Source: a bacterium
GTDB lineage: Bacteria; Patescibacteriota; Microgenomatia; UBA1406; GWC2-37-13
Direction of reading: 5' to 3'
Length of the DNA: 64,000 nucleotides
Assembly: GCA_029573715.1 (NCBI GenBank)
Contig: JAKQDR010000172.1
Coordinates: forward strand, 112,241-176,240
Shown: positions 948 to 62,555 of the stretch, piece by piece
Position numbering within the stretch: the first letter of the stretch is position 1
Layout of the letters: every line of letters starts with the position of its first letter
Position numbers and translations under genes: made by a program
The notes under the pieces: model-generated
What the model was told of the DNA's origin: nothing
Databases searched by the model: none
Seen by the model: only the letters and a program-made list of their open reading frames with translations

Positions 948-2732
948 ATGTTCATATCTATTCGTCATTTGAGCCAAAGGCTCATCCGCCTATGGAGGAT
1001 ACCATTAGCCATTCGCCTATTGTTATTAGTGCTCTTCTTCCATCTCGTTGGCAACGTCGTATGGATTGCGCTCAATCAATCACCTCCTTCGTGGGATGAA
1101 GCAAACCATATCCGACGAAGCGTGCAATACACCTATTTCATCCAAGATCTTTTGGCAGGAAAGCCTGATTGGGGTATGGCATGGGATAGCTTTCAGGATG
1201 GCTATGGGCCACTCGTGCGTATCATCACGGGTATCTTCATGCTTTTTGCTGGTGTCGGTGTGGTGCAGACTCAAATAGTCTCGACACTATTTTTCCTTGC
1301 GACTATCGTGGCAGTGTATTTGCTTGCACGGGAAATAGCGAATAGCGAAACAGAAAACTGGCGAAGACATCTGTTTTGCGCAGTCAACGGGGTTCTCCCG
1401 AGGGGTACGTCGCAAGCAAAACACGGTGTCGAGACACAACAGCACTTCCCATCAACAATTATTGCGATAAGTACAGCACTGGTATTTTCATTCTATCAAC
1501 TTATCTATGCGCATTCGCGCTGGCTTCTTCTGGATATCCCCGTAACTTTATTTACAACACTTTCATACCTTTTCCTCATAAAAAGTGGATGGGGATGCAA
1601 ACGAAAAGAGACCATACTAGCAGGTGTGCTTGCCGCATGCGCAATGCTCACCAAGGCACAGGCTGTGGTGTATTTTGTAATTCCAGCTCTTTATGTTGTT
1701 GTGCGAATAGCGAATGGCGAATGGCGGATCAGATTACTTAATCTAGCTATCTCGCTCATCGTTTGCTTGTTACTCTTCTCCCTCTGGGCGCTTCCTAACC
1801 TTACCCACATGTACGAATACGTCAAAGCAGGCGCAACCATACGGCTTAATCATCCCGATGATCTGCGCTCCATCACGACCTGGACATTTTATCTAAAACT
1901 CATCATTAACAACATTACCACGCTGTGGGGGTTTTTGCTGTGGATACCTGCATGTTTTATCTTTCTGCGAAAGCATAAGAAACACACGCTTTTTATCATA
2001 TCCGTTGTTATTGGATATTATCTTTGGTTTAGCCTAATCTCAAACAAAGACTTGCGGTTCATATATCCCATATTCCCCATGTTTGCATACATTGGTGCAT
2101 ATGGATGGGCTCGCATTCTCATATATCTGCACGACAAGCGAAAAGCAGTATGGATGGGTGTTGCAATTGCAACCCTCTTGGTATTTCTCGTGTTTCAAAT
2201 CACTATGTACACAGTTCTCTCCTTCGGATGGCCATTTCCAAAAAATATTACCTCATATGTATTGGTGCCAGGCATAGATGATATTACGGTGCTTAATACC
2301 GCATCAGATTATCCAGTCAAAGCATACGGGGCGGACAAATGGCCTGTGCAAGAACTCGCGCAAGATCTAAAAGATTATTTCGCGGACAAACCGTTCACCT
2401 ATGTATTTCTTGTTCCGAATTTTGAATACTTTAATAACAACACCATCACATTGGAGCTTACTCGGATCCGCGCGCAAAATGTAGTGCTCATGGGCGGGAT
2501 AAACAAACAATCGTTTGAAAACCCGAGAGAATTGGATGACTTTGTCAAGCAGTATGCGCATTTCATTTATGTTGAAGGGGAATTCGGCCCCTACTTCCAG
2601 TGGGACAGGGCGTTTTATGCACAAGTACAACAGTATGTAGCGGATATCTATTCCCTAGGAAGGTCAAAGACACACAAATCATATCAGTTGCCCAATGGTC
2701 AGATAGTGCATTGGTTCATTATTGATCCATGA
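948..2732 (+). CDS. polytopic membrane glycosyltransferase, GT39 / ArnT-PMT-like (GT-C fold)
   Basis: 594-aa ORF with many hydrophobic segments. The N-terminal loop motif SPPSWDEANH resembles the conserved acidic loop of ArnT/PMT-type enzymes. Its stop overlaps the next start (ATGA 2729-2732). Confidence 0.6.
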   Translation: MFISIRHLSQRLIRLWRIPLAIRLLLLVLFFHLVGNVVWIALNQSPPSWDEANHIRRSVQYTYFIQDLLAGKPDWGMAWDSFQDGYGPLVRIITGIFMLFAGVGVVQTQIVSTLFFLATIVAVYLLAREIANSETENWRRHLFCAVNGVLPRGTSQAKHGVETQQHFPSTIIAISTALVFSFYQLIYAHSRWLLLDIPVTLFTTLSYLFLIKSGWGCKRKETILAGVLAACAMLTKAQAVVYFVIPALYVVVRIANGEWRIRLLNLAISLIVCLLLFSLWALPNLTHMYEYVKAGATIRLNHPDDLRSITTWTFYLKLIINNITTLWGFLLWIPACFIFLRKHKKHTLFIISVVIGYYLWFSLISNKDLRFIYPIFPMFAYIGAYGWARILIYLHDKRKAVWMGVAIATLLVFLVFQITMYTVLSFGWPFPKNITSYVLVPGIDDITVLNTASDYPVKAYGADKWPVQELAQDLKDYFADKPFTYVFLVPNFEYFNNNTITLELTRIRAQNVVLMGGINKQSFENPRELDDFVKQYAHFIYVEGEFGPYFQWDRAFYAQVQQYVADIYSLGRSKTHKSYQLPNGQIVHWFIIDP

Positions 2733-6630: not shown

Positions 6631-6798
6631 GGATGTATTGATTTTGTAACGATATTAAGATACCAGGGTATAGGGTAAATTACAAACCAAGGCAGTACAT
6701 ATAGCATAGGCTACGTCACACACTTCAAATGCTATAGACGAGGTGCGACACTCATATTCTGAGACATCTGTACCATGATACAACTAAACCTATAGTAC

Positions 6799-6827
6799 TT
6801 GACAAGGGGTTTTAAATCTGGTAATAT
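6799..6827 (+). promoter_or_regulatory. sigma70-like promoter candidate: TTGACA - 17 nt - TAATAT
   Basis: TTGACA at 6799-6804 and TAATAT at 6822-6827, read directly. It lies in a long AT-rich spacer, and the first downstream plus-strand CDS starts at 7530. Confidence 0.4.
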
Positions 6828-7225
6828 GAACCTGTTCAAACATCCCAAACGGACACGTCTGGAGGTTTTTATACCCTAGAAATGTTCGGGATGAAAGGAC
6901 AAAATCGCCCCACGTCGCATAAAGCTATGCGGGGCAAGCACCTTAACAAATCGCTTTGTAAGTAGTGGAGAGACAGAGGATATTCTCATTTCATCGTTAT
7001 GTTTCGAGCGTAGTCGAGAAATCGATGAGCACGAGATATAACACCATAGGTTCATCATACCAATCACGCTTTGCATGTGAACGATATGCTGCCCTATAAC
7101 ATATGAGGATATTCACTCAACTCTCCTCTACCATACAATTTTGCATGATAGATTTTAATTTAGTTAGTATAAGTGAATCCTCCAACAGGATTTGAGAAAG
7201 AATCGAAAGCGCCACGCCACAAAGC

Positions 7226-7352
7226 TTTTTTTGGTGGAAATAAGGATCAAAAATATCAAGTTCAATGTTCATAGTTCAAAGTTCATGGATAAAACCATGC
7301 ACCACGAACCATGCACTATGAACCATACTTTGGTTTTTGTTCCCACCAAAAG
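7226..7352. repeat. long imperfect hairpin built from two opposed heptamer arrays, at the left border of GC island 2
   Basis: The outer arms are CTTTTTTTGGTGGAA (7225-7239) and GTTCCCACCAAAAG (7339-7352). The inner arms are CAAGTTC AATGTTC ATAGTTC AAAGTTC (7257-7284) and CACCACG AACCATG CACTATG AACCATA (7300-7327). Confidence 0.7.
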
Positions 7353-7516
7353 GGCTCGCAGGCCGGCGCAGTGCGCACGACCCCCCCTGGCCAACCGGCC
7401 GGAGCCCAAGCCAAAAATGCCTTCAGTATTTCGGAAGGCACAAGTGCGCGGGCTTAGGTGGCCGCGCGACTCGATTTCTTCAACCGCCGGCCTTAAAAAC
7501 CGGCACACTTCCGTAC

Positions 7517-7521
7517 GGAGG
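7517..7521 (+). promoter_or_regulatory. Shine-Dalgarno GGAGG 8 nt upstream of ATG 7530
   Basis: The sequence is cGGAGGaaagtttcATG. Most native start codons I inspected in this window lack such a motif. Confidence 0.6.
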
Positions 7522-7529
7522 AAAGTTTC

Positions 7530-8546
7530 ATGAACGCGTTCTCGAAGTGGATCCGCCGGGTCTTCCAAACCCGGCCTCTGGCCCTGGCCTTGGTGGTATC
7601 GACCGCCCTGGCCGTCGTGTTCGTCTCGCTCATTGCCGTGGCACCCGCCGCGGCCCAGAACCCCGCCTGCAGCGACCAGATCGTCGGCACCAGGCTGACC
7701 TTACCTGCCATGACGGCAGGACAGGAGGCCGTGGTGCCTTCTGGCCTCTTGAATGGAGCAACCGCACTGTGCGTCGAAGGTATGGAAGCGGCTGAGAGCA
7801 TTGCCTTGAAGTTGAAGGGTACGAACCCTTACACAGCCGAAGGCAACTCAACCGCCCTGACCGTGGACGCCGAGTTTGCTACCAACTTGGCTCTCTCCGA
7901 CCCGTCGTTCAACGGCAGCCTGCTCAAGGCTGCTCCTGGTTTGCCGGCCGTGACGATTATCGCCTTGAGCGACCTGACCGAGGGCGTCACCGTCTGGGTG
8001 GGTAACCCCCGCCCCACGGTGATCGCGAATGTCAAAATCGACCAATGGCAGGACATCAAGATCCCGGGCAACATTTCCGAGCTCGCCGCCGGAACCACGA
8101 AGTGGTCCGGCAACGGAGTCTTGATCGTCATCACGTCTGGTGCGGCCTTTGCGGCCAACGGCACGGCCGTGCTCCCTGAGCCGACGAAGGTCGGCAGATA
8201 CGAGTTCTACGTCGACAGCGCAACTCAGTTGGTGCTGGCGGGCACGGTGCCCGGCCAGCGGTTCTACCTGAGCGTCGACGCTGACACGGTGACCGCTGAC
8301 TCGTGGCTTCAGCGGCGGGTCGAACCCACCACTGCCACCACTACCGGCGCGGCGGCCTCCACGGCAGGCGCCCAGTACACTGATCTCGGCGGCGCGTGCT
8401 TTAGCGCCGCCACCTGTTCGGCCGCCCAGGCCGTCGCCTGCGTCTCGGGGGCTCCCAAGCTCCCGTGCACGCCCGGCGACTCGATCGAGGTCTGGGGGGC
8501 CCCTGCCCCCATGACCTTGTGGGAGGCCTTGCAGCTCGTGAAGTAG
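7530..8546 (+). CDS. secreted protein of unknown function (338 aa), GC-rich foreign-looking gene
   Basis: The N-terminus KWIRRVFQTRPLALALVVSTALAVVFVSLIAVAPAAAQ looks like a signal peptide or anchor. A Thr/Ala-rich linker (EPTTATTTGAAAST) is followed by a Cys-rich tail. A strong SD precedes it. Long ORFs on both strands here are typical of high-GC DNA. Confidence 0.75.
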   Translation: MNAFSKWIRRVFQTRPLALALVVSTALAVVFVSLIAVAPAAAQNPACSDQIVGTRLTLPAMTAGQEAVVPSGLLNGATALCVEGMEAAESIALKLKGTNPYTAEGNSTALTVDAEFATNLALSDPSFNGSLLKAAPGLPAVTIIALSDLTEGVTVWVGNPRPTVIANVKIDQWQDIKIPGNISELAAGTTKWSGNGVLIVITSGAAFAANGTAVLPEPTKVGRYEFYVDSATQLVLAGTVPGQRFYLSVDADTVTADSWLQRRVEPTTATTTGAAASTAGAQYTDLGGACFSAATCSAAQAVACVSGAPKLPCTPGDSIEVWGAPAPMTLWEALQLVK

Positions 8547-12501: not shown

Positions 12502-12555
12502 TTGCAAATTGAGTCGAGATTTTTTCCGCCAAAGGCGGATGCACAGATAGGCAAA

Positions 12556-12628
12556 CCTTTCAATTGAGCTGCAGGTAACATCCTGCAGGTTTCGTAAGTT
12601 TGAATCCCGCAATTAAGCGGGAAACCTG
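12556..12628 (-). repeat. loose relative of the tRNA-associated two-hairpin element, in the 16S 3' trailer
   Basis: The minus strand reads CAGGTTTCCCGCTTAATTGCGGGATTCAAACTTACGAAACCTGCAGGATGTTACCTGCAGCTCAATTGAAAGG. It has the same order as the tRNA-associated copies: GGTT, a CCCGC/GCGGG hairpin, A-rich linker ending AAC, a second hairpin, then TTGAA. Confidence 0.45.
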
Positions 12629-12756
12629 TTGTGTCACAATTCTTGTGACGATAGCCTTGACCGGCATGTCTTTTTCCTTGGATCGTACTTGTGGCGCCTT
12701 ATAAGCAAGCACCAAAAATACGTTTAGCGACTTTCTTCACTAAAAAGAAAAAAAGA

Positions 12757-14572
<1,816 letters not shown>

Positions 14573-14792
14573 GAAATTGCAGGAATACTCTTTTCATTGC
14601 TGAAAAGGTACCTACAGCTCAATTGCTAGGCTTGCTCGCCTCAATGTGCTTAAAGCACTTTGGGCGAGATGTGTGTGCATTCGGGCATCATACGACGCCC
14701 GAAATAATTTCCTCGATTTATCAATGTGCGGGACACTATTTTACTAGATACGAGACTCAAATACAATGGGCATAGCCTCGGGTGATCAGGAG

Positions 14793-22573: not shown

Positions 22574-22598
22574 AAAAAAAATCCCGCTTTGTGCGGGG
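22574..22598 (-). terminator. intrinsic terminator between trpS and thrC
   Basis: The minus strand reads CCCCGCacaaaGCGGGAttttttttagg, a stem followed by a T8 run. It lies just upstream of the thrC start. Confidence 0.65.
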
Positions 22599-32007: not shown

Positions 32008-32081
32008 GCGCCTGTAGCTTAATTGGATAGAGCGTCAGTCTTCGGAACTGAAGGTTGCAGGTTCAAGTCCTGCCAGGCGCA
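32008..32081 (+). tRNA. tRNA-Arg(UCG), CCA not encoded
   Basis: GCGCCTGTAGCTTAATTGGATAGAGCGTCAGTCTTCGGAACTGAAGGTTGCAGGTTCAAGTCCTGCCAGGCGCA folds as a canonical cloverleaf. Confidence 0.9.
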
Positions 32082-32112
32082 CAAGTGGATATACGCATCG
32101 AATCCGTGTCAA

Positions 32113-32214
32113 GCAGGTTCCCCGCAATCGTGTGCGATATGCGGGACTAACTGTCCGTAATGCTCGAGTTTCACTCGTCGCAAACGGTCAGTTGAGCAAG
32201 TCCTGCCAGGCGCA
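32113..32214 (+). repeat. truncated second copy of the tRNA-Arg(UCG) T-arm and acceptor 3' strand, split inside the T-loop by a 76-nt two-hairpin element (32121-32196)
   Basis: GCAGGTTC (32113-32120) plus CAAGTCCTGCCAGGCGCA (32197-32214) reproduce the tRNA 3' part exactly. The insert is CCCGCAATCGTGTGCGATATGCGGGACTAACTGTCCGTAATGCTCGAGTTTCACTCGTCGCAAACGGTCAGTTGAG. Confidence 0.8.
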
Positions 32215-32264
32215 CATTGTTGTATCTTAACGATACGAAGTGAGTTTAGATACAACAGTGACAA

Positions 32265-32336
32265 GGGCTCGTAGCTCAACGGTAGAGCAGTTCCCTCTTA
32301 AGGAATTGGTTGAGAGTTCGAATCTCTCCGAGCTCA
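32265..32336 (+). tRNA. tRNA-Lys(CUU), CCA not encoded
   Basis: GGGCTCGTAGCTCAACGGTAGAGCAGTTCCCTCTTAAGGAATTGGTTGAGAGTTCGAATCTCTCCGAGCTCA folds as a canonical cloverleaf. Confidence 0.9.
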
Positions 32337-32381
32337 CAGACAGTATCAGAAACAGCAATTGCCCCCTCGATGACCCACCAT

Positions 32382-32602
32382 AGAGTTAAGAGCAGTCCGC
32401 CAGTGGGCGGATTGGTTGAGAGTTCGAATCTCTCCGGACTCACATACACCAAGGGGAGGGGTTTCCGCCAAAAGCGGACAGGTTTTGAGAGTTCTCCCGA
32501 TAGTCATTAATAGCTATCGGGACAAATCCCGCAAAGCGGGGAAATCTCTCCGGACTCACATAAACCAAGGGGAGGGGTTTCCGCCAAAGGCGGACAGGGT
32601 TT
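32382..32602 (+). repeat. array of tRNA-like 3' halves and 52-nt direct repeats downstream of tRNA-Lys
   Basis: An uninterrupted T-arm plus acceptor strand GAGAGTTCGAATCTCTCCGGACTCA ends at 32442. A second copy (32487-32558) is split after TTC by TCCCGATAGTCATTAATAGCTATCGGGACAAATCCCGCAAAGCGGGG. The repeat CGGACTCACATAMACCAAGGGGAGGGGTTTCCGCCAAARGCGGACAGGKTTT occurs at 32435-32486 and 32551-32602. Confidence 0.8.
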
Positions 32603-32607
32603 GGAAG

Positions 32608-33279
32608 TTACTTCGCCAGCAGATTTGTGACCAGCTCTTCAATGCCAATGCGTTTCTTCGCGGATGTTTTGACGATTAATATATCAGGATTTACATCGTA
32701 GATATTTTGGATGGCTTTTTGTTCATCAAACTCAGCTACTGATGCCAGATCAATTTTAGAAATCACGCATATATCTGCAGAATGAAACATGGTGGGGTAT
32801 TTGAGCGGCTTATCTTCCCCTTCAGTCACTGCCATAAGTACCATGCGCTTTGTTTCTCCCAGATCATAGCTTGCGGGGCACACTAGATTGCCCACGTTCT
32901 CAATAAATAATATGTCAGCATCTCGCCATGGAAGGGTTTTAAGCCCTTGCTTCACCATACGCGCATCCAGATGACAGGCGCCATGCGTGTTGATCTGATA
33001 TGTGTGAGCTCCGCTTGATGCGAGCCTTTTTGCGTCATGGTCGGTTGATAAATCTCCCACAATGGCACAGACATGCAATCCCTTTGTTATAAGTTCGCGC
33101 GACACGACAGTAAGGAGTTCAGTTTTTCCCGACCCAGGGCTTGATACGACATTGATAACGGTGGTTTTATTTTTTGCAAAGTTGCGCCTCAAAATTTGCG
33201 CCCGCCGATCATTCTCTTCCAATATACCTGTCCGAATGGTCATGATTTTTGGATTGTTACTCATAGGTGATGCGGTCAA
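32608..33279 (-). CDS. hypB: hydrogenase/urease nickel-incorporation GTPase HypB
   Basis: It has the P-loop SSPGSGKTELL, CHLDARMV and ENVGNLVCPASYDLGE motifs typical of HypB. Confidence 0.9.
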   Translation of the reverse strand: MTASPMSNNPKIMTIRTGILEENDRRAQILRRNFAKNKTTVINVVSSPGSGKTELLTVVSRELITKGLHVCAIVGDLSTDHDAKRLASSGAHTYQINTHGACHLDARMVKQGLKTLPWRDADILFIENVGNLVCPASYDLGETKRMVLMAVTEGEDKPLKYPTMFHSADICVISKIDLASVAEFDEQKAIQNIYDVNPDILIVKTSAKKRIGIEELVTNLLAK

Positions 33280-57266: not shown

Positions 57267-57335
57267 CTTGCAAAGGGATGGGGGGAGAAGTTTGTCGAAG
57301 GACAGCGAGGATGTATTAAGGCTCAAGCCCGTAAC

Positions 57336-59051
57336 ATGGAGGGCAATACTCGTATGCACGACTCACCACCGTCATCAAAACAATCATTGCAATGGCCACA
57401 GATACTCTTGTATGGCCTGGTCATACTCGGCACTGTGCTTAATCTACTCTATATTATTCCCAATGGCCATGTTACATGTGTTGATGCAACATGTGGCATT
57501 CGAATTGGAGAATGGCATTATCACGATGCACTCTGGCATATCGCCGTAGCGCGCAATTCATTTACCTCATTTCCACTACTCTTCCCTTCTGCATCTGGCT
57601 TTGAACTTACATCATACAACTACCTGTTGGGCTTCATAATATTTCTATTTGAGTGGACAAAGCTCGATCCATTTTTTGTATATTTTAAACTACTACCACT
57701 AATTGGCAATGTGCTCCTAGTTTACACACTTTTTCGATATTTTAGTCATACGCAAAAGACAAGATGGCAACAGATATGGATTACATTTTTCATGTACTTT
57801 GGATCCTCGCTTTCGTACCTGCTCATATGGTATCGAGGTAATCTTGTTGAATTTAGCATACTTAAAGGTTTTCCGGTCGTTGCAACCGTGCAGCCTGCAT
57901 TTGTACTTTCGAATGTGCAGTTTTTTCTCACCATACCTATCATCCTCTATATTTTCACCGATATCGTGACCAGAAACAGATCCCCCCATACACGTCTTAT
58001 CCACGCATCTCTACTCGCTCTTTCTATTGGTCTTAAAATCTATAGCGGGCTATTTGTCGGACTTATTCTTCTTATTGGCCTTATAGACGAATTCATTTCA
58101 AACAATAATTTTAAAAGTACATTGATATCGGGAGCCACCTATTTGTGTGTATCAATTGTTTCCGTACTAATCTTTTATCTTCCATTTCGCATGAGTTCTT
58201 CAGCATTTCCATTTGTGTGGGCTCCCTTTGCCATACCTCATGTCATCACAGAATCGCCCGGCTTGTTCTATCATAAAGATTTTACGCTCGGCAGATATTT
58301 TATGTATGGGCTCGGCACGATTTCTCCACGTCTAATCTTCTATGAACTTCTAAGCACCATGTTTTTTATTTTGTGGAATTTGGGGAGTCGTGTCATTGTG
58401 TTTGTCATCGTGCCCCTTTTAATCTTTCGTAAGGCAATACATCGAGAACACAGCATATTGTTTGCACTCGGATCTATAGGGCTCATCCTCCCCATACTGT
58501 TTATTCAATCAGGTGGTGGATGGTACAACACCATTCAATTTGCATACGTAGGGGTGTATTTGCTGGGTGTTCTTGCGGGTCTTTGTCTAGCTGTAATGAC
58601 TCAAAGTCGATTCTTATTGATGCGTGTATTTGTCATTTTCTTCGTGATAATTACTATTCCCAACAATCTACTCATGTTTTCATTGCTCGCGAAAGAAAAA
58701 TTACTTATTTCAAGTGAAGAAATACACGTGTTGACGGCCCTCAAGCAGGAGCCGCGCGGAGTTGTCTTGTCGTTTCCCGATGATAAAAATTCATCTTATG
58801 TCCCCGCTTTGTCAAACAAAATTGGTTACATGATTGACTACGAGCAGGCTCGATTGCTTGGACTACCGGTAGAAGAGCGCATTAAAAAAGTTGAGGCAAG
58901 AGATTGTTCAGTGCTTGCTGACGTTCGGTATGTGTACGTGAATTCTATCAAAGGGACAGAATATCTTGAGTGTCCCGGATTTATTGATGTGTTTAGATTG
59001 CGTCATACAAAGGGTGAGATAAGCCTGTACATGAAAATTGATTATCTTTAG
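57336..59051 (+). CDS. large polytopic membrane protein (GT-C / O-antigen-polymerase-like), function unknown
   Basis: The track ORF starts at 57240 inside the tRNA gene. I moved the start to the first ATG after the tRNA (MEGNTRMHDS...). The protein has more than 10 hydrophobic segments. Confidence 0.6.
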   Translation: MEGNTRMHDSPPSSKQSLQWPQILLYGLVILGTVLNLLYIIPNGHVTCVDATCGIRIGEWHYHDALWHIAVARNSFTSFPLLFPSASGFELTSYNYLLGFIIFLFEWTKLDPFFVYFKLLPLIGNVLLVYTLFRYFSHTQKTRWQQIWITFFMYFGSSLSYLLIWYRGNLVEFSILKGFPVVATVQPAFVLSNVQFFLTIPIILYIFTDIVTRNRSPHTRLIHASLLALSIGLKIYSGLFVGLILLIGLIDEFISNNNFKSTLISGATYLCVSIVSVLIFYLPFRMSSSAFPFVWAPFAIPHVITESPGLFYHKDFTLGRYFMYGLGTISPRLIFYELLSTMFFILWNLGSRVIVFVIVPLLIFRKAIHREHSILFALGSIGLILPILFIQSGGGWYNTIQFAYVGVYLLGVLAGLCLAVMTQSRFLLMRVFVIFFVIITIPNNLLMFSLLAKEKLLISSEEIHVLTALKQEPRGVVLSFPDDKNSSYVPALSNKIGYMIDYEQARLLGLPVEERIKKVEARDCSVLADVRYVYVNSIKGTEYLECPGFIDVFRLRHTKGEISLYMKIDYL

Positions 59052-59106: not shown

Positions 59107-59178
59107 GCCGCCTTAGCTCAGTGGTAGAGCACTCGCTTTGTAAGCGAATGGTCGCGGGTTCGAATCCGGCAGGCGGCT
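59107..59178 (+). tRNA. tRNA-Thr(UGU), CCA not encoded, one G-G mismatch in the T-stem
   Basis: GCCGCCTTAGCTCAGTGGTAGAGCACTCGCTTTGTAAGCGAATGGTCGCGGGTTCGAATCCGGCAGGCGGCT. The acceptor stem is perfect, while T-stem GCGGG/CCGGC has a central mismatch. Confidence 0.75.
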
Positions 59179-59197
59179 CATAGCTTGGAGTAACAAC

Positions 59198-59225
59198 AGA
59201 TATGAGTTGGTAGATATGAGTTGGT
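59198..59225 (+). repeat. exact 14-nt tandem duplication AGATATGAGTTGGT x2
   Basis: Read directly. It lies inside the decayed tRNA-Thr copy. Confidence 0.9.
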
Positions 59226-59230
59226 CGATC

Positions 59231-59326
59231 GGGTTCCCCGCTTCGCATATTGCTTTGCGGGATAAACTGGCAGGTAATGCTCATTGCATTCGCAAACTGC
59301 CAGTTGAACGAATCCGGCAGGCGGCT
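59231..59326 (+). repeat. truncated copy of the tRNA-Thr T-arm and acceptor 3' strand, split in the T-loop by a 72-nt two-hairpin element (59237-59308)
   Basis: GGGTTC plus CGAATCCGGCAGGCGGCTCATAG reproduce the tRNA 3' end and 5 trailer nt. The insert is CCCGCTTCGCATATTGCTTTGCGGGATAAACTGGCAGGTAATGCTCATTGCATTCGCAAACTGCCAGTTGAA. Confidence 0.8.
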
Positions 59327-59336
59327 CATAGTTCAA

Positions 59337-59413
59337 GGCCTCATAGCTCAATTGGACAGAGCAACTCCCTTCTAAGGAGTAGGTTGGCCGTTCGATTCGG
59401 CCTGAGGTCACCA
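59337..59413 (+). tRNA. tRNA-Arg(UCU), CCA encoded
   Basis: GGCCTCATAGCTCAATTGGACAGAGCAACTCCCTTCTAAGGAGTAGGTTGGCCGTTCGATTCGGCCTGAGGTCACCA. The final A is also the A of ATG 59413. Confidence 0.9.
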
Positions 59414-60675
59414 TGAATTCAGTAAGTAGTAACAAAAAGAAGTATCTATTCTTCCCTATCGAGATCGGACTTGCCCATATTTGCCGTTCTCTCGCTGTTG
59501 CCGAGGAGCTTGTTGCGCGGGGTCACACGGTGTATTTTGCTCTCCCTAAGCGCAAATGGAAGTTGTTTTCTCATACCACCGTTACTTTAGTTTCGATTGA
59601 AAGTTATGTAGCTGCTGACGATTTCGGCATGAATGTGAAACTGTTTCGAGATCCAAAACTTATCGATCGGGTGGTATCAGAGGAATTAGCGCTCATTGAC
59701 AAGTACAATCCTGATGCAGTAATTGTTGATTTCCGTATTTCTGCTTTTGCGGCAGCTACCATACGAGGTATATGCACGTTTGCTATTTTTGTGGGCGACG
59801 GCCTCCCTTATGGTGCTCATTTGCCTAATCCCGGCCTGCCTCGATGGGCATATCGATTGTTTCGTAATGTCTTTCCAAAATTGTATGATGTGGCATCACG
59901 CTGGTACCTCAACCCGTTTATCAAATATATGCGAAATCATGGGGTACACACATCATTTGATGCGTGGATGCGTGCAGTTACCTATATCGTCCCTGAAGCG
60001 CCGTTTTATATGCCTCCTGCCTCATCAACACTCCAGGTGCATCACACAGGTACCCTCGGTTGGTATGCATTTGATAATCCAATACCCCCATGGCTTGACA
60101 AGATGTGCCCGGATGGACGCACCGTGTATGTAAGTTTTGGAGGTACCGGGTTTGATAAAAACAAACCAATCGAAATCTGCATGGCCCTTGTGAAGAAGGG
60201 TTATCGTGTAATTGTCACAACAGGATCAATTTCAAACCCGTCCGACTATCCATCACATCCCAATCTTTTTGTCACGACTTTTTTGCCAGGCAACACAATA
60301 TCTAAAAAAATTGATGTGCTTGTGTGTCATGGGGGGTATGGCACGATGATGGATGCGATTCAATGTGGGGTACCGGTTGTTGCAATTCCTTTTAATCCCG
60401 ATCAGATATTACACGCAGCACGCATGCAGGAGCTTGGGCTTGCCAAATCTCTTCTGACGCTTTCCGCCCGTGACACATATAATGCGTTTACGTTTCAATG
60501 GAAACATATTGAGGAAAAAGGCAAGCAAATACCATCAAGCACCATTGTCCAGGCAGTGGATGAGTTGATAAAGAAGAAAGATTTGTATCAAACCAATATT
60601 CGAAACTTTAACGCGAAATATCCCAGCACCAACGGCGCATCAGAAGCTGCTGATATAGTTGAAAAGGGCCGTTAG
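59413..60675 (+). CDS. GT1-family (MGT/UDP-glycosyltransferase-like) glycosyltransferase
   Basis: It has the C-terminal nucleotide-sugar signature VCHGGYGTMMDAIQCGVPVVAIPFNPDQ. Confidence 0.75.
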   Translation: MNSVSSNKKKYLFFPIEIGLAHICRSLAVAEELVARGHTVYFALPKRKWKLFSHTTVTLVSIESYVAADDFGMNVKLFRDPKLIDRVVSEELALIDKYNPDAVIVDFRISAFAAATIRGICTFAIFVGDGLPYGAHLPNPGLPRWAYRLFRNVFPKLYDVASRWYLNPFIKYMRNHGVHTSFDAWMRAVTYIVPEAPFYMPPASSTLQVHHTGTLGWYAFDNPIPPWLDKMCPDGRTVYVSFGGTGFDKNKPIEICMALVKKGYRVIVTTGSISNPSDYPSHPNLFVTTFLPGNTISKKIDVLVCHGGYGTMMDAIQCGVPVVAIPFNPDQILHAARMQELGLAKSLLTLSARDTYNAFTFQWKHIEEKGKQIPSSTIVQAVDELIKKKDLYQTNIRNFNAKYPSTNGASEAADIVEKGR

Positions 60676-60708
60676 TCCCGCGGAGTCTTGACGAACCGGG
60701 AAACCTCC
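60671..60708 (-). repeat. truncated copy (T-stem strand plus hairpin 1 plus ACTAAC) of the tRNA-Leu(GAG)-associated element, overlapping the GT1 stop codon
   Basis: The minus strand reads GGAGGTTTCCCGGTTCGTCAAGACTCCGCGGGACTAAC. Compare GGAGGTTCCCCACTTCGTCAAGACTTCGCGGGACTAAC at 61032-60995. Confidence 0.75.
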
Positions 60709-60935
60709 ACCAGCTTCCTTATTTACTATGAACACATGTGGGTGGCCCGCCACAGTTCGGGCTTTCGGCTTAGGTCGCATATCTGCGACACAAGAATCGT
60801 ATTTCTAACTATCTTGCAATAGTTAGAAACGATCTCTATGCATATTTTCGCTGCGCCTCATGCGCTCACTTATCGGCGGGCATTGATATACCTAACCTCG
60901 CCATATGTTGCTTTGCTCGCTAAGGTATATCAATG

Positions 60936-61032
60936 TGCCCGAGAGAGGATTTGCTCAACGGGCAGTATACGAATGCAATGAGTAGTACCTGCCCGTTAGT
61001 CCCGCGAAGTCTTGACGAAGTGGGGAACCTCC
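60936..61032 (-). repeat. truncated copy of the tRNA-Leu(GAG) T-arm and acceptor 3' strand, split in the T-loop by a 71-nt two-hairpin element (60954-61024)
   Basis: The minus strand reads GGAGGTTC [CCCACTTCGTCAAGACTTCGCGGGACTAACGGGCAGGTACTACTCATTGCATTCGTATACTGCCCGTTGAG] CAAATCCTCTCTCGGGCACA. Confidence 0.8.
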
Positions 61033-61079
61033 AGGTGATAAGGTAATAAAAAGTGTTGCTGCGTGACTCAGATTATATG

Positions 61080-61161
61080 TGCCCGAGAGAGGATTTGAAC
61101 CTCCACTTCTTACGAAACACGCCCCTCAAGCGTGCGCGTCTGCCAGTTCCGCCACTCGGGC
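61080..61161 (-). tRNA. tRNA-Leu(GAG), long variable arm, CCA not encoded
   Basis: The reverse complement is GCCCGAGTGGCGGAACTGGCAGACGCGCACGCTTGAGGGGCGTGTTTCGTAAGAAGTGGAGGTTCAAATCCTCTCTCGGGCA. Confidence 0.9.
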
Positions 61162-61178
61162 AACGAGCTCATATTATA

Positions 61179-62555
61179 TCATTTGTTGCGCGTGACCGTA
61201 AAGATATATGGGTAGTAGAGAAATACCGCAGGCGCATCATCTACGATTTTATTTTGAAATTCAATCAGTAGCTCCTTTTGCATAGAGGCACTATCTGTTG
61301 CTCGATAATCTTCCAAAAGTTTATCAACCTTCGGATTTTCATAACGGGTTATATTAGAGCGTCCTTTCTGACTTGAGTGCCACATGAAATATTGATTAAC
61401 ATCAGAAGGGATGTCCCACATTCCCAATATCATGTCGGCACGCTCACCTGGTCGAAGTCCCTCCACATCTACCGTGATTGTGCCACTAGCGCCCTCCACG
61501 ACATCTTTAATAGTGTGTGCCAAGTTGATGAGTTCTAACGATGTTGCAAGTTTAAGATGAGCAGATTCGGTTGCTTCCGAAAAGAACTTCTTTAAAATTG
61601 CTCGGTTCACTTCAGGGTTTTCAGCAATACGCGGTATTGTAGGGTCATAGTTGACAGATAGAGGAGATATTGGTGAAACTGCGATATTTCCATATTGTTC
61701 AAGAAGAGTAACCGGTATGCTCCCATACAAAGCCATACGCGCATCTCGCTCTTTCAGTATCGGGTGCTCCATATCAAAAAATAGTGCGAGCACGCGTTTG
61801 AAATCACTTGTTTGAGTTGTCTTTGTGTCACTCCACTCACTAAATGTTTCTGTAACAATACTGCCCGTGGTAGAAAATGTGTCAATTTCTCGAAGCTTAT
61901 ATGCAGTAATAAGATCTGCTTCTGATCGATAAAATCGAAAAACCAACTTAGGTTTATTGACCATAAGAGGTGATAAAACGATCTTCTCTAGTCTGTCTCC
62001 TCCCCGCACATAGCGAACCTGAGTGAGGATGTATTCCCCCTTCACTCCTCGAAATGGATTAGTGCTATAAACCGGTTTGGCTAAATACGAGATAAAAAGA
62101 GGAAAAGGTTTGGATAGTTCAAAAAGAATCTTCTCAGGTGTGGGATAACTAATGGTCACATCTTTAAACACAAATGGAATATCATGCGAGGTAAACGGTG
62201 TTCCGTCGGTGTAGACAAGATCACGATGAAGAGTAAGTTCATACTTCGTAAAATCACTGTTATAGCTGTAGGATTTGACGATATCGCTTTCATAGGTGCC
62301 ATCAACTTTTTGTACAAACAAAGGAACAGTAATCACATCAATTACTTCACGGGGCAGATTATCAAGCGTGTATGCTCCACTGAGCCCGACGCGTTGAGTA
62401 TTGGTTGCAAAAAGCTGAATGATTTCTCGTGAGAAAAAGATGTAGAGCGCTATTACGATTGAAGTTATAAAAAACGACCCGATGACATAAAGTGCATACT
62501 TCTTGAGGAAAGCAAGAACGATCCAGTAGTACAAGCGAAACTTCTTTTGGGGCAT
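61179..62555 (-). CDS. membrane-anchored solute-binding protein, family 5 (peptide/nickel ABC type)-like
   Basis: It has an N-terminal TM segment followed by a ~420-aa soluble domain. The resemblance to SBP family 5 is by eye only. Confidence 0.5.
   Translation of the reverse strand: MPQKKFRLYYWIVLAFLKKYALYVIGSFFITSIVIALYIFFSREIIQLFATNTQRVGLSGAYTLDNLPREVIDVITVPLFVQKVDGTYESDIVKSYSYNSDFTKYELTLHRDLVYTDGTPFTSHDIPFVFKDVTISYPTPEKILFELSKPFPLFISYLAKPVYSTNPFRGVKGEYILTQVRYVRGGDRLEKIVLSPLMVNKPKLVFRFYRSEADLITAYKLREIDTFSTTGSIVTETFSEWSDTKTTQTSDFKRVLALFFDMEHPILKERDARMALYGSIPVTLLEQYGNIAVSPISPLSVNYDPTIPRIAENPEVNRAILKKFFSEATESAHLKLATSLELINLAHTIKDVVEGASGTITVDVEGLRPGERADMILGMWDIPSDVNQYFMWHSSQKGRSNITRYENPKVDKLLEDYRATDSASMQKELLIEFQNKIVDDAPAVFLYYPYIFTVTRNK

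Follow-up and report, generated by a model that had tools for sequence, protein, structure and literature searches.

A Family of tRNA-Bound Units Behind tRNA-Leu(GAG) and Other tRNA Genes of a Candidatus Woesebacteria Genome: Possible Miniature Insertion Cassettes

The Question Raised by the tRNA-Leu(GAG) Locus

In a 64,000-nucleotide (nt) stretch (the window; contig JAKQDR010000172.1) of the roughly 1-Mb genome of a Candidatus Woesebacteria bacterium (Patescibacteria), an intact tRNA-Leu(GAG) gene is followed by a copy of its own 3′ end, a hairpin-rich interval and a truncated repeat that runs into the stop codon of a convergent gene. What is this 490-nt interval, and how could it have arisen? 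Part of the answer is firm: there exists a family of tRNA-bound units with a fixed design, these units are inserted relative to related genomes, their copy number varies, and cassettes are common to the paralogous tRNA-Leu loci. The interval itself may then consist of two stacked, miniature, non-coding cassettes that restore the tRNA behind which they insert, a reading that we hold tentatively and with slightly less than even confidence.

In what follows, E designates the two-hairpin element of the units, h5 the copy of the T-stem 5′ strand with TTC, and h3 the distal tRNA end; H0 is a hairpin that forms the first part of a module termed Y. L-numbers designate the sequences compared, of which L001 is a piece of a metagenome contig and L002 the continuation of the window's own contig past position 64000. 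A covariance model (CM R1) was made from five divergent E copies. The locus, which ends in a GT1-type glycosyltransferase open reading frame (ORF), is laid out as follows.

61079..61161, minus strand: intact tRNA-Leu(GAG) (ARAGORN; Rfam tRNA, 49.4 bits)
61034..61076, minus strand: spacer of cassette 1, about 43–45 nt (sequence reading)
61026..61033, minus strand: h5, copy of the tRNA-Leu T-stem 5′ strand and TT(C), TGGAGGTT; C61025 is common to h5 and the element
60954..61025, minus strand: E copy A, 72 nt (nhmmer, E = 2e-23; CM R1, 79.8 bits; covariation)
60933..60953, minus strand: h3, identical to tRNA-Leu between C56/A57 and the discriminator, then CAT (repeat family D2, 100% identical)
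60881..60935, minus strand: H0, 13-bp hairpin, first part of Y (inverted repeat I1; begins at the CA after the discriminator)
60710..60880, minus strand: Y core (CCCGCC...GGCGGGC domain) and linker to the next h5 (alignment; nhmmer)
60774..60839, minus strand: nested 66-nt insertion in Y (BLAST of L001 against the window, with a break between 60840 and 60773)
60669..60709, minus strand: h5 and truncated E copy B, only hairpin 1 and ACTAACGG (family D1; CM R1, 21.6 bits)
59413..60675, plus strand: GT1-type glycosyltransferase ORF, convergent (Pfam; homologue comparison)

The features reported in a first-pass annotation of this DNA (the tRNA, the copy of its 3′ end, the repeats, the hairpins and the overlap with a stop codon) were all found where it had placed them. 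The tRNA copy split in the T-loop that it described is borne out: copy A reads TGGAGGTTC, the element, then CAAATCC.., so that the tRNA 3′ part is broken between C56 and A57. The 21-nt h3, CAAATCCTCTCTCGGGCACAT, at 60933–60953 is identical to 61077–61097, a segment that begins mid T-loop and ends three bases beyond the discriminator; the live gene does not encode CCA, and CAT comes after its discriminator. The element does occur in a full and in a truncated state, and its link to the T-loop-split tRNA end is real and non-random. A 41-nt direct repeat (60669–60709 versus 60993–61033, 90% identical, family D1) contains a 25-nt core that occurs twice in the window and in none of 100 shuffles. Within copy A, the order is hairpin 1 (CCCAC..GCGGG), ACT, hairpin 2 (AACGGGCAG..CTGCCCGTT) and GAG. 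The spacer of cassette 1 opens with TATAAT immediately 3′ of the tRNA, which yields a promoter-like TTCAAA-16-TATAAT at 61099..61072 with the T-loop as the −35 box; such matches occur only at chance frequency. A repeat search of the window also gave a 12-nt repeat at 61067–61078 and 61168–61179.

Copy B abuts the GT1 ORF and covers its last two codons: the TAG stop (60673–60675) lies inside the repeat, as the annotation had it, and, with copy B ending at 60669, the overlap is 7 nt. The idea that the element had shortened this ORF was rejected, since the C-terminus lies within one residue of the homologues' end and is therefore of a normal length. The idea of a full but decayed tRNA pseudogene in the 215-nt interval between the two repeats was also rejected: in a local alignment, the 60 nt of the tRNA 5′ part score like shuffles (z of about 0.6), and no decayed 5′ part is detectable there.

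One Design Behind Five tRNA Genes

The same unit lies behind five tRNA genes of this genome, those for Leu(GAG), Thr, Arg(TCG), Lys and Leu(TAG), each time with flanks specific to the tRNA concerned. The order is an intact tRNA, a spacer of 15–215 nt, the T-stem 5′ strand with TTC, an E of about 71 nt, and then what remains of the T-loop and T-stem, the acceptor strand and CA(T); 2–5 trailer bases close each cassette after the acceptor strand copy. Three further instances, revealed by BLAST and profile searches of the window, are absent from the first-pass annotation.

59180..59331, plus strand: unit behind tRNA-Thr(TGT) (59107–59179), with spacer, CGGGTTC, E at 59236–59308 and CGAATCCGGCAGGCGGCTCATAG (BLAST, profile, CM)
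32083..32262, plus strand: unit behind tRNA-Arg(TCG) (32008–32082), with spacer, GCAGGTTC, E at 32120–32196, CAAGTCCTGCCAGGCGCACA and an H0-type hairpin
32338..32610, plus strand: array behind tRNA-Lys(CTT) (32265–32337), with a partial copy, then GAGAGTTC, a short E and GAAATCTCTCCGGACTCACATA

E measures 73 nt at tRNA-Thr, where it is about 80% identical to the Leu(GAG) element, and 77 nt at tRNA-Arg(TCG). At the Leu, Thr and Arg loci, the tRNA 3′ copies are exact over 20–23 nt; these flanks are 100% identical to the neighbouring tRNA, whereas the E copies differ from one another by 20–40%. The tRNA-Lys array is more complex. It starts with an uninterrupted partial copy (32411–32445), the insert that follows at 32492–32541 is apparently an inverted short E of 46 nt with two hairpins, and the spacer recurs after the second copy and ends at the stop codon of a convergent ORF. 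The uninterrupted copy has the acceptor strand CGGACT where the live gene has CGAGCT, and it is preceded by the complementary AGTCCG, which suggests a mini tRNA-like helix or the remnant of a foreign tRNA-Lys.

The fifth instance is in L001. That this piece comes from a second strain was considered and rejected: genes of both loci are found together on a 448-kb contig, and L001 represents the tRNA-Leu(TAG) locus of this very genome. The cassette whose second E copy is truncated in the window is complete at this locus, where tRNA, H0, Y core, TGGAGGTTC, element and tRNA 3′ end succeed one another and are followed by a shorter cassette of the same design. In the window, trailer modules (a partial copy or a Y-core trailer) occur behind all five of the tRNAs that do not encode CCA, as against none of the three that do (Val, Asp and Arg-TCT).

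The Two-Hairpin Element

The position of E is constant, between nucleotides 56 and 57, at the centre of TTC|RAA in the T-loop; in the Thr and Lys tRNAs, this site is the dyad of the palindrome TTCGAA. The build is constant too, with an invariant hairpin 1 (CCCGC..GCGGG), a linker A-Y-W, a hairpin 2 whose stem varies with the locus, and a final GAG or GAA. CM R1 recovers all of the copies, and E is homologous among the five loci and across species (nhmmer, CM). In hairpin 2, seven of the eight pairs have changed on both sides, and 93.9% of the cells pair, versus 29–41% with slid partners; none of 500 shuffles scored as high, and these covariation counts lean toward the model because the alignment was fitted to it. 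E is structurally constrained. When folded with their flanks, the Thr, Arg and Lys units each form a three-way junction that the T-stem closes; the z-scores range from −4 to −5 for RNA and from −3.6 to −6.6 for DNA.

Does E have the marks of a transposable element? Its ends (CCCCGC.. and ..GTTGAG) are not inverted repeats, and its flanks have only a single ambiguous C in common, with no clear duplication of the target. At Leu, Thr and Arg, the four bases before E are GTTC, which is not the case at Lys or at the D-loop copies described below. In the approximately 140 kb examined, E was not found outside tRNA contexts. As to orientation, the reverse complement of the Lys insert begins CCCCGCTTTGCGGGA, and its match to CM R1 on the opposite strand is weak (16.8 bits, E = 0.09), so the inversion is mainly a matter of sequence reading; it suggests that both orientations of E may occur at the same site. 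The single-base variants among the E copies fit pairing on different strands in different copies.

Two stretches elsewhere in the window recall E. One, at 12545–12632 on the minus strand just 3′ of the 16S rRNA gene, reads AGGTTT CCCGCTTAATTGCGGGA TTCAAAC.. CTGCAGGATGTTACCTGCAG; it folds with z = −3.8 and has no CM match at E ≤ 1. The other is an intrinsic terminator (22582–22598, minus strand), CCCCGCACAAAGCGGGA followed by T8, whose stem has the same sequence as hairpin 1 of E.

Searches in wider collections returned little. With Rfam 15, which includes small ribozymes and tRNA-like elements, only tRNAs scored above threshold, and nothing relevant appeared at E ≤ 10 on four stretches. The 25-nt core had no match in the GTDB representative genomes or in viral contigs, and in JGI metagenomes it matched two contigs only, both of this genome; a degenerate pattern gave two chance matches lacking tRNA context in genomes and none in viral contigs.

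The 215-nt Interval and Module Y

The first-pass annotation had proposed that the 215-nt interval could be either a structured RNA or what remains of a larger inserted unit. The inserted unit is the part that stands, Y and the h5-E-h3 that follows it forming one cassette that is intact at Leu(TAG). A conserved structured RNA receives no support: the Rfam check of the interval matched no family, Y itself has no Rfam match in gathering mode or in the E ≤ 10 mode, and it is absent from the syntenic sites examined in relatives. The annotation had also named a common dispersed repeat unrelated to the tRNA as a finding that would refute it. The outcome lies midway: there is a repeat family, one strictly bound to tRNA genes or their fragments.

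The hairpins on which that description was based are present: 13-bp arms at 60881–60893/60923–60935, 11-bp arms at 60802–60812/60819–60829, and GTCGCA/TGCGAC at 60774–60789. The last two belong to the nested 66-nt insertion, which thus holds two of the three hairpins and is missing at Leu(TAG). Y is not confined to this locus.

57268..57350, plus strand: Y-core copy directly behind tRNA-Leu(TAA) (nhmmer, E = 2e-17)

Other copies of Y or its core are found behind tRNA-Leu(TAG) and, in L002, behind tRNA-Ala, in the spacer between tRNA-Ala and 23S rRNA; an H0-type hairpin also follows the last tRNA-Arg(TCG) unit. At three tRNAs, H0 starts exactly after the discriminator, and in the alignments of the tRNA-Ala (L002) and tRNA-Arg(TCG) copies its stems differ in sequence yet stay complementary. 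An identical 16-mer is present in the loop of the Arg H0 hairpin and, in another species, in the loop of hairpin 2 of an E relative. H0 and Y may therefore be relatives of E in the opposite orientation.

More repeats occur in a non-coding region of about 900 nt at 6631–7530 of the window, where 6923–6954 is 94% identical to L002 1893–1924 (within L002 1640–2020), 7293–7326 matches a tandem array beyond the end of the window, and 6908–6937 resembles hairpin 1 of E.

Insertion, Copy Number and Exchange

The syntenic loci of relatives were chosen by the neighbouring SBP protein, which is 59–67% identical. In the closest relatives (L005–L009), the 3′ ends of tRNA-Leu(GAG) and tRNA-Thr are identical to those of the window, and none of the syntenic loci of L005–L014 has a downstream copy of a tRNA end. 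It is in this sense that the units count as insertions when related genomes are the reference.

Copy number differs between assemblies. The 148-nt Thr unit is present once in the window, twice in L017 and at least three times in L018, and the 133-nt Arg unit is present as a single copy or as three identical copies according to the assembly. Part of this variation may reflect assembly collapse. The scaffolds of metagenome-assembled genomes (MAGs) at NCBI have N-gaps at the unit arrays, and contigs break inside the arrays (L015, L018–L020, L001). The Leu(GAG) locus, for its part, is unchanged in at least five independent assemblies.

The Leu(GAG) and Leu(TAG) versions of the cassette made of Y and E are 93–99% identical. 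In two Logan contigs with a 100% identical SBP protein, tRNA-Leu(GAG) carries modules otherwise seen at Leu(TAG), including a 5′ module. These sequences point to an exchange of cassettes between the two near-identical tRNA-Leu genes.

Which enzyme could be at work? By Pfam, no recombinase or transposase stands beside the loci of the window among 30 window ORFs, and the neighbours are housekeeping genes, which is consistent with non-autonomous elements. An integrase-bounded island at tRNA-Leu(TAG) was considered and rejected, there being no distal att copy within 6 kb; the recombinase of L029 has no distal att site in its vicinity. In relatives, tRNA-Leu(GAG) is a variable spot, with RadC and helix-turn-helix (HTH) genes in L005. 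In L031, a distant relative, a truncated tyrosine integrase (1910–2635, minus strand; 241 amino acids (aa), ending just past the HxxR region) lies directly behind tRNA-Leu(GAG), and the 3.2 kb examined there contain no second att copy.

Mirror-Image Cassettes at the 5′ Side

In L009 and L011–14, the live gene is preceded by a piece of the tRNA-Leu 5′ end into which a two-hairpin element of 63 nt has been set, either after position 9 or within the D-loop. This 5′ element is matched by the E profile on the opposite strand (nhmmer, E of about 1e-3; CM, 67–72 bits). The 5′ fragments of L009, L031 and L032 bear mini-hairpins of CCCCGC..GCGGGG and TTTATCCCGCTTTGNGGGA. In L032 (1340–1480), mini-hairpin units of 19 nt are repeated in tandem, with two copies of CCCCGCAGAGCGGGGCAAG and about four of TTYATCCCGCTTTGAGGGA, which gives the pseudo-D-arm the look of a hairpin minisatellite.

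After the 5′ fragment comes an ORF of 88–89 aa of the GIY-YIG type (L009 1763–2029; L031 1501–1767; L032 1501–1770). Its last 12 or so codons (..ARVAELADAHA) are the 5′ half of tRNA-Leu(GAG), and its stop codon is in the anticodon loop. The C-terminal ..AR(V/M)A(E/K)LADA.. is present in nine of the 12 homologues retrieved by a search that gave 15 clusters, from which it follows that the tRNA-Leu-fused arrangement is old and widespread. In every case that was checked, the SBP gene is on one side of the ORF and tRNA-Leu on the other, and the hairpin-bearing 5′ fragments are kept together with the GIY-YIG gene across divergent genomes.

The genome of the window has its own versions of both. A related 88-aa GIY-YIG ORF (L002 2323–2589) lies in an insertion near the 5′ end of the 23S rRNA, and hairpin-bearing 5′ fragments are found at tRNA-Leu(TAG) and tRNA-Ser(GGA). 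At tRNA-Ser, as in L009, L011, L031 and L032, the loops of the 5′ fragments contain CCCCGC..GCGGGR hairpins or an inverted E. The 23S rRNA gene (L002 2024–5397) is 3374 nt long versus 2925 positions in the model; a tRNA-Ala lies 535 nt upstream, and the spacer contains a Y module.

How the Cassettes May Insert, and the Alternatives

A mechanism can be proposed for cassettes that restore their tRNA. A cassette made of a tRNA-end copy, a spacer, the T-stem strand and E would recombine with the resident tRNA across a terminal identity of about 20 bp. The tRNA would be rebuilt from the copy in the cassette, and the original end would be displaced distally, with E now ahead of it. If the incoming form were a circle of h3, spacer, h5 and E, a crossover within h3 would give exactly the order observed; were the exchange to fall in h5 instead, E would end up inside the live tRNA, a product that would not survive. 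This logic would be that of attL/attR formation by integrative elements that target tRNA genes, at a scale of 100–300 bp and with no encoded recombinase. The three-way junction that E forms when the T-stem closes it would act in cis as a structured site, in DNA or possibly in RNA. Units could then be multiplied by unequal crossing-over or re-integration, and recombination could shift cassettes from one tRNA-Leu locus to the other. The distal copy B would have been trimmed as far as the end of the GT1 gene, where selection would halt further loss. One candidate for the enzyme would be a small GIY-YIG nuclease that acts in trans, like the one in the 5′ analogues; another would be a tyrosine recombinase of the Xer kind.

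Several points weigh against this reading. No excised form, no within-species empty-site allele and no enzyme were seen, and either unequal crossing-over or the collapse of tandem repeats in assemblies could by itself account for the differences in copy number. Simple att-type recombination does not explain the T-stem 5′ strand ahead of E, other than through stem closure. Copy A in the window, which has an A for a G in hairpin 1, folds no better than shuffles (z = −1.3), and no target motif is consistent over all of the E copies. The one uninterrupted partial copy, at Lys, means that E could be a separate small element that inserts secondarily. Finally, in the data searched, the 3′ form occurs in one species-level lineage only.

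Such a secondary insertion is at the heart of another explanation, in which the partial tRNA copies are decayed att remnants of integrase-borne islands and a hairpin transposon of the REP/RAYT or IS200/IS605 PATE type later entered the dead T-loop copies, insertions into live tRNAs being lethal and never seen. Much of what has been described fits: the subterminal hairpins of E with neither terminal inverted repeats nor clear target duplication, the GTTC that precedes it at three loci, the uninterrupted copy at Lys, the multiplied mini-hairpins of L032, and the variability of tRNA-Leu(GAG) in relatives, with the RadC/HTH genes of L005 and the truncated tyrosine integrase of L031; that integrative elements make partial tRNA copies is, besides, well known (PMC9897764). 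However, nearly all of the 3′ partial copies are broken, and at one and the same nucleotide, while the 5′ piece kept is always just the T-stem strand of 7–10 nt. Nor would this history lead one to expect tRNA halves still identical to the neighbouring gene next to E copies so divergent, an E confined to tRNA contexts, repeats with neither an integrase nor island-sized cargo between them, or hairpin-bearing 5′ fragments conserved with a GIY-YIG gene across divergent genomes. We consider it rather unlikely. The strong compensatory variation of hairpin 2 and the conserved closing T-stem could also be those of a functional RNA, h5-E-h3 and Y being transcribed with the tRNA or just after it as tRNA-half mimics or as processing or termination structures for tRNAs that lack CCA. 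This would agree with the restriction of the modules to such tRNAs in the window, with the start of H0 exactly after the discriminator, with insertions confined to loops, as in a constrained fold, and with the promoter-like site at the start of cassette 1, such promoter matches being, for their part, at chance level. It is nevertheless improbable: relatives with the same tRNAs do without the modules, the copy number varies freely, no Rfam family was matched, and neither pairing that fits different strands in different copies nor an E seemingly in both orientations, for which the Lys case rests on a weak match, is predicted by a role as RNA.

An artefact, whether an assembly error or a single decayed local tandem duplication of the tRNA, is scarcely credible and is largely refuted already. 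Contigs do break in the arrays, N-runs do occur in the MAG scaffolds, and the region upstream of the tRNA weakly resembles the start of the spacer. However, the Leu locus is identical in the independent assemblies, the design recurs at five tRNAs with their own flanks, E has homologues across species, and the interval contains no detectable tRNA 5′ part. A further possibility is an undescribed class of element in which a structured mimic of a tRNA arm (the D- or T-stem around E, with the acceptor strand) would guide a trans-acting nuclease or recombinase, possibly the tRNA-Leu-fused GIY-YIG protein, to the loop of the live tRNA, homing there by structure or homology. The cassette would integrate while rebuilding the tRNA, and retargeting would amount to a swap of about 30 nt of tRNA-derived flanks. 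We regard this more specific proposal as unlikely.

Comparison with Known Systems

Widespread tRNA fragments of integrative-element origin were reportedly described by Williams in 2002. That fragments left by integrative elements that target tRNA genes are widespread is also documented (PMC9897764). Of the nearest known systems, att tRNA fragments and homing-endonuclease insertions each differ in at least one defining feature that was tested, and REP/PATE elements would seem to do so as well.

The remnants of attL/attR left by tyrosine integrases (T-loop sublocation class, CIME type, tandem accretion) resemble the present units in that an intact tRNA is rebuilt, the tRNA 3′ segment is repeated directly at the distal end, related genomes have empty sites, and units are stacked in tandem at one tRNA. 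They differ in that the window units are of 100–300 bp, with only 45–215 nt of non-coding DNA between the repeats and neither integrase nor cargo; that the distal copy is split mid T-loop by a conserved two-hairpin element, with exactly the T-stem 5′ strand kept; that at least five tRNAs of a roughly 1-Mb genome are affected; and that mirror-image 5′ versions exist.

With REP/BIME-RAYT sequences, IS200/IS605 PATEs and the palindromic elements of Rickettsia, the units share hairpin elements of 60–80 nt that have no terminal inverted repeats or clear target duplication, a short motif beside the insertion (GTTC at Leu, Thr and Arg, though not at Lys or the D-loop copies), nesting in loops, and a structure kept by compensatory change. 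In contrast to these systems, E occurs only in tRNA-derived arms beside the cognate live tRNA, the tRNA-specific flanks travel with E or stay identical to the neighbouring gene, and no transposase, the Y1 type included, is seen in the window, part of the roughly 90 kb of this genome that was read. A cut-and-paste MITE would have the terminal inverted repeats and target-site duplication that E lacks.

Homing-endonuclease genes are found in phage tRNA clusters, as in the case of SegB of T4 (PMC2330249). Like these insertions and those in the rRNA genes of the candidate phyla radiation (CPR), the present units land in genes for structural RNAs, and GIY-YIG ORFs occur in the 23S insertion and in the 5′ tRNA-Leu cassettes of relatives. 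Unlike them, the window cassettes contain no ORF, the 88-aa proteins have no DNA-binding domain, and neither a cleavage site nor an immunity logic emerged. Like integron attC sites, E would be a folded recombination site conserved in structure, and ..TAAC and GTTGAGC/GTTGAAC around hairpin 2 fit GTTRRRY; it has, however, two hairpins rather than one long imperfect one, its inverse core fits RYYYAAC poorly, and there is no IntI, attI or ORF cassette. As for tRNA genes with a T-loop intron, or split or permuted ones, only 7–10 nt of tRNA lie upstream of E, and ARAGORN finds no gene there. Literature searches turned up no account of tRNA copies split in the T-loop, nor of tRNA-Leu genes into which a GIY-YIG gene reads, an absence that is no proof of novelty.

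If the units are indeed insertion cassettes, then a minimal-genome CPR bacterium tolerates, or cannot shed, selfish units of 100–300 bp, which accompany roughly one in two of the tRNA genes examined. Each would be tailored to its own tRNA, and the attL/attR logic of tRNA islands would extend to a non-autonomous, miniature scale. This would imply an enzyme that recognises the centre of T-loop and D-loop sequences, and the small GIY-YIG genes whose reading frames extend into tRNA-Leu across Patescibacteria would offer a concrete connection that can be tested. If, on the other hand, there are only decayed att sites and a hairpin transposon, the case is a neat but ordinary accumulation of repeats. 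The arrays also have a practical consequence: they break assemblies, make N-gaps in MAGs and can mislead the annotation of tRNAs and pseudo-tRNAs.

Other Observations in the Window

The tRNA-Arg(TCT) gene (59337–59413) encodes CCA, the final A of which is the first base of the called start codon of the GT1 ORF. Insertions in 16S rRNA genes are common in CPR bacteria, and the 16S rRNA gene of the window (12756–14575, minus strand) is 1820 nt long versus 1533 positions in the model, with an insertion of about 290 nt.

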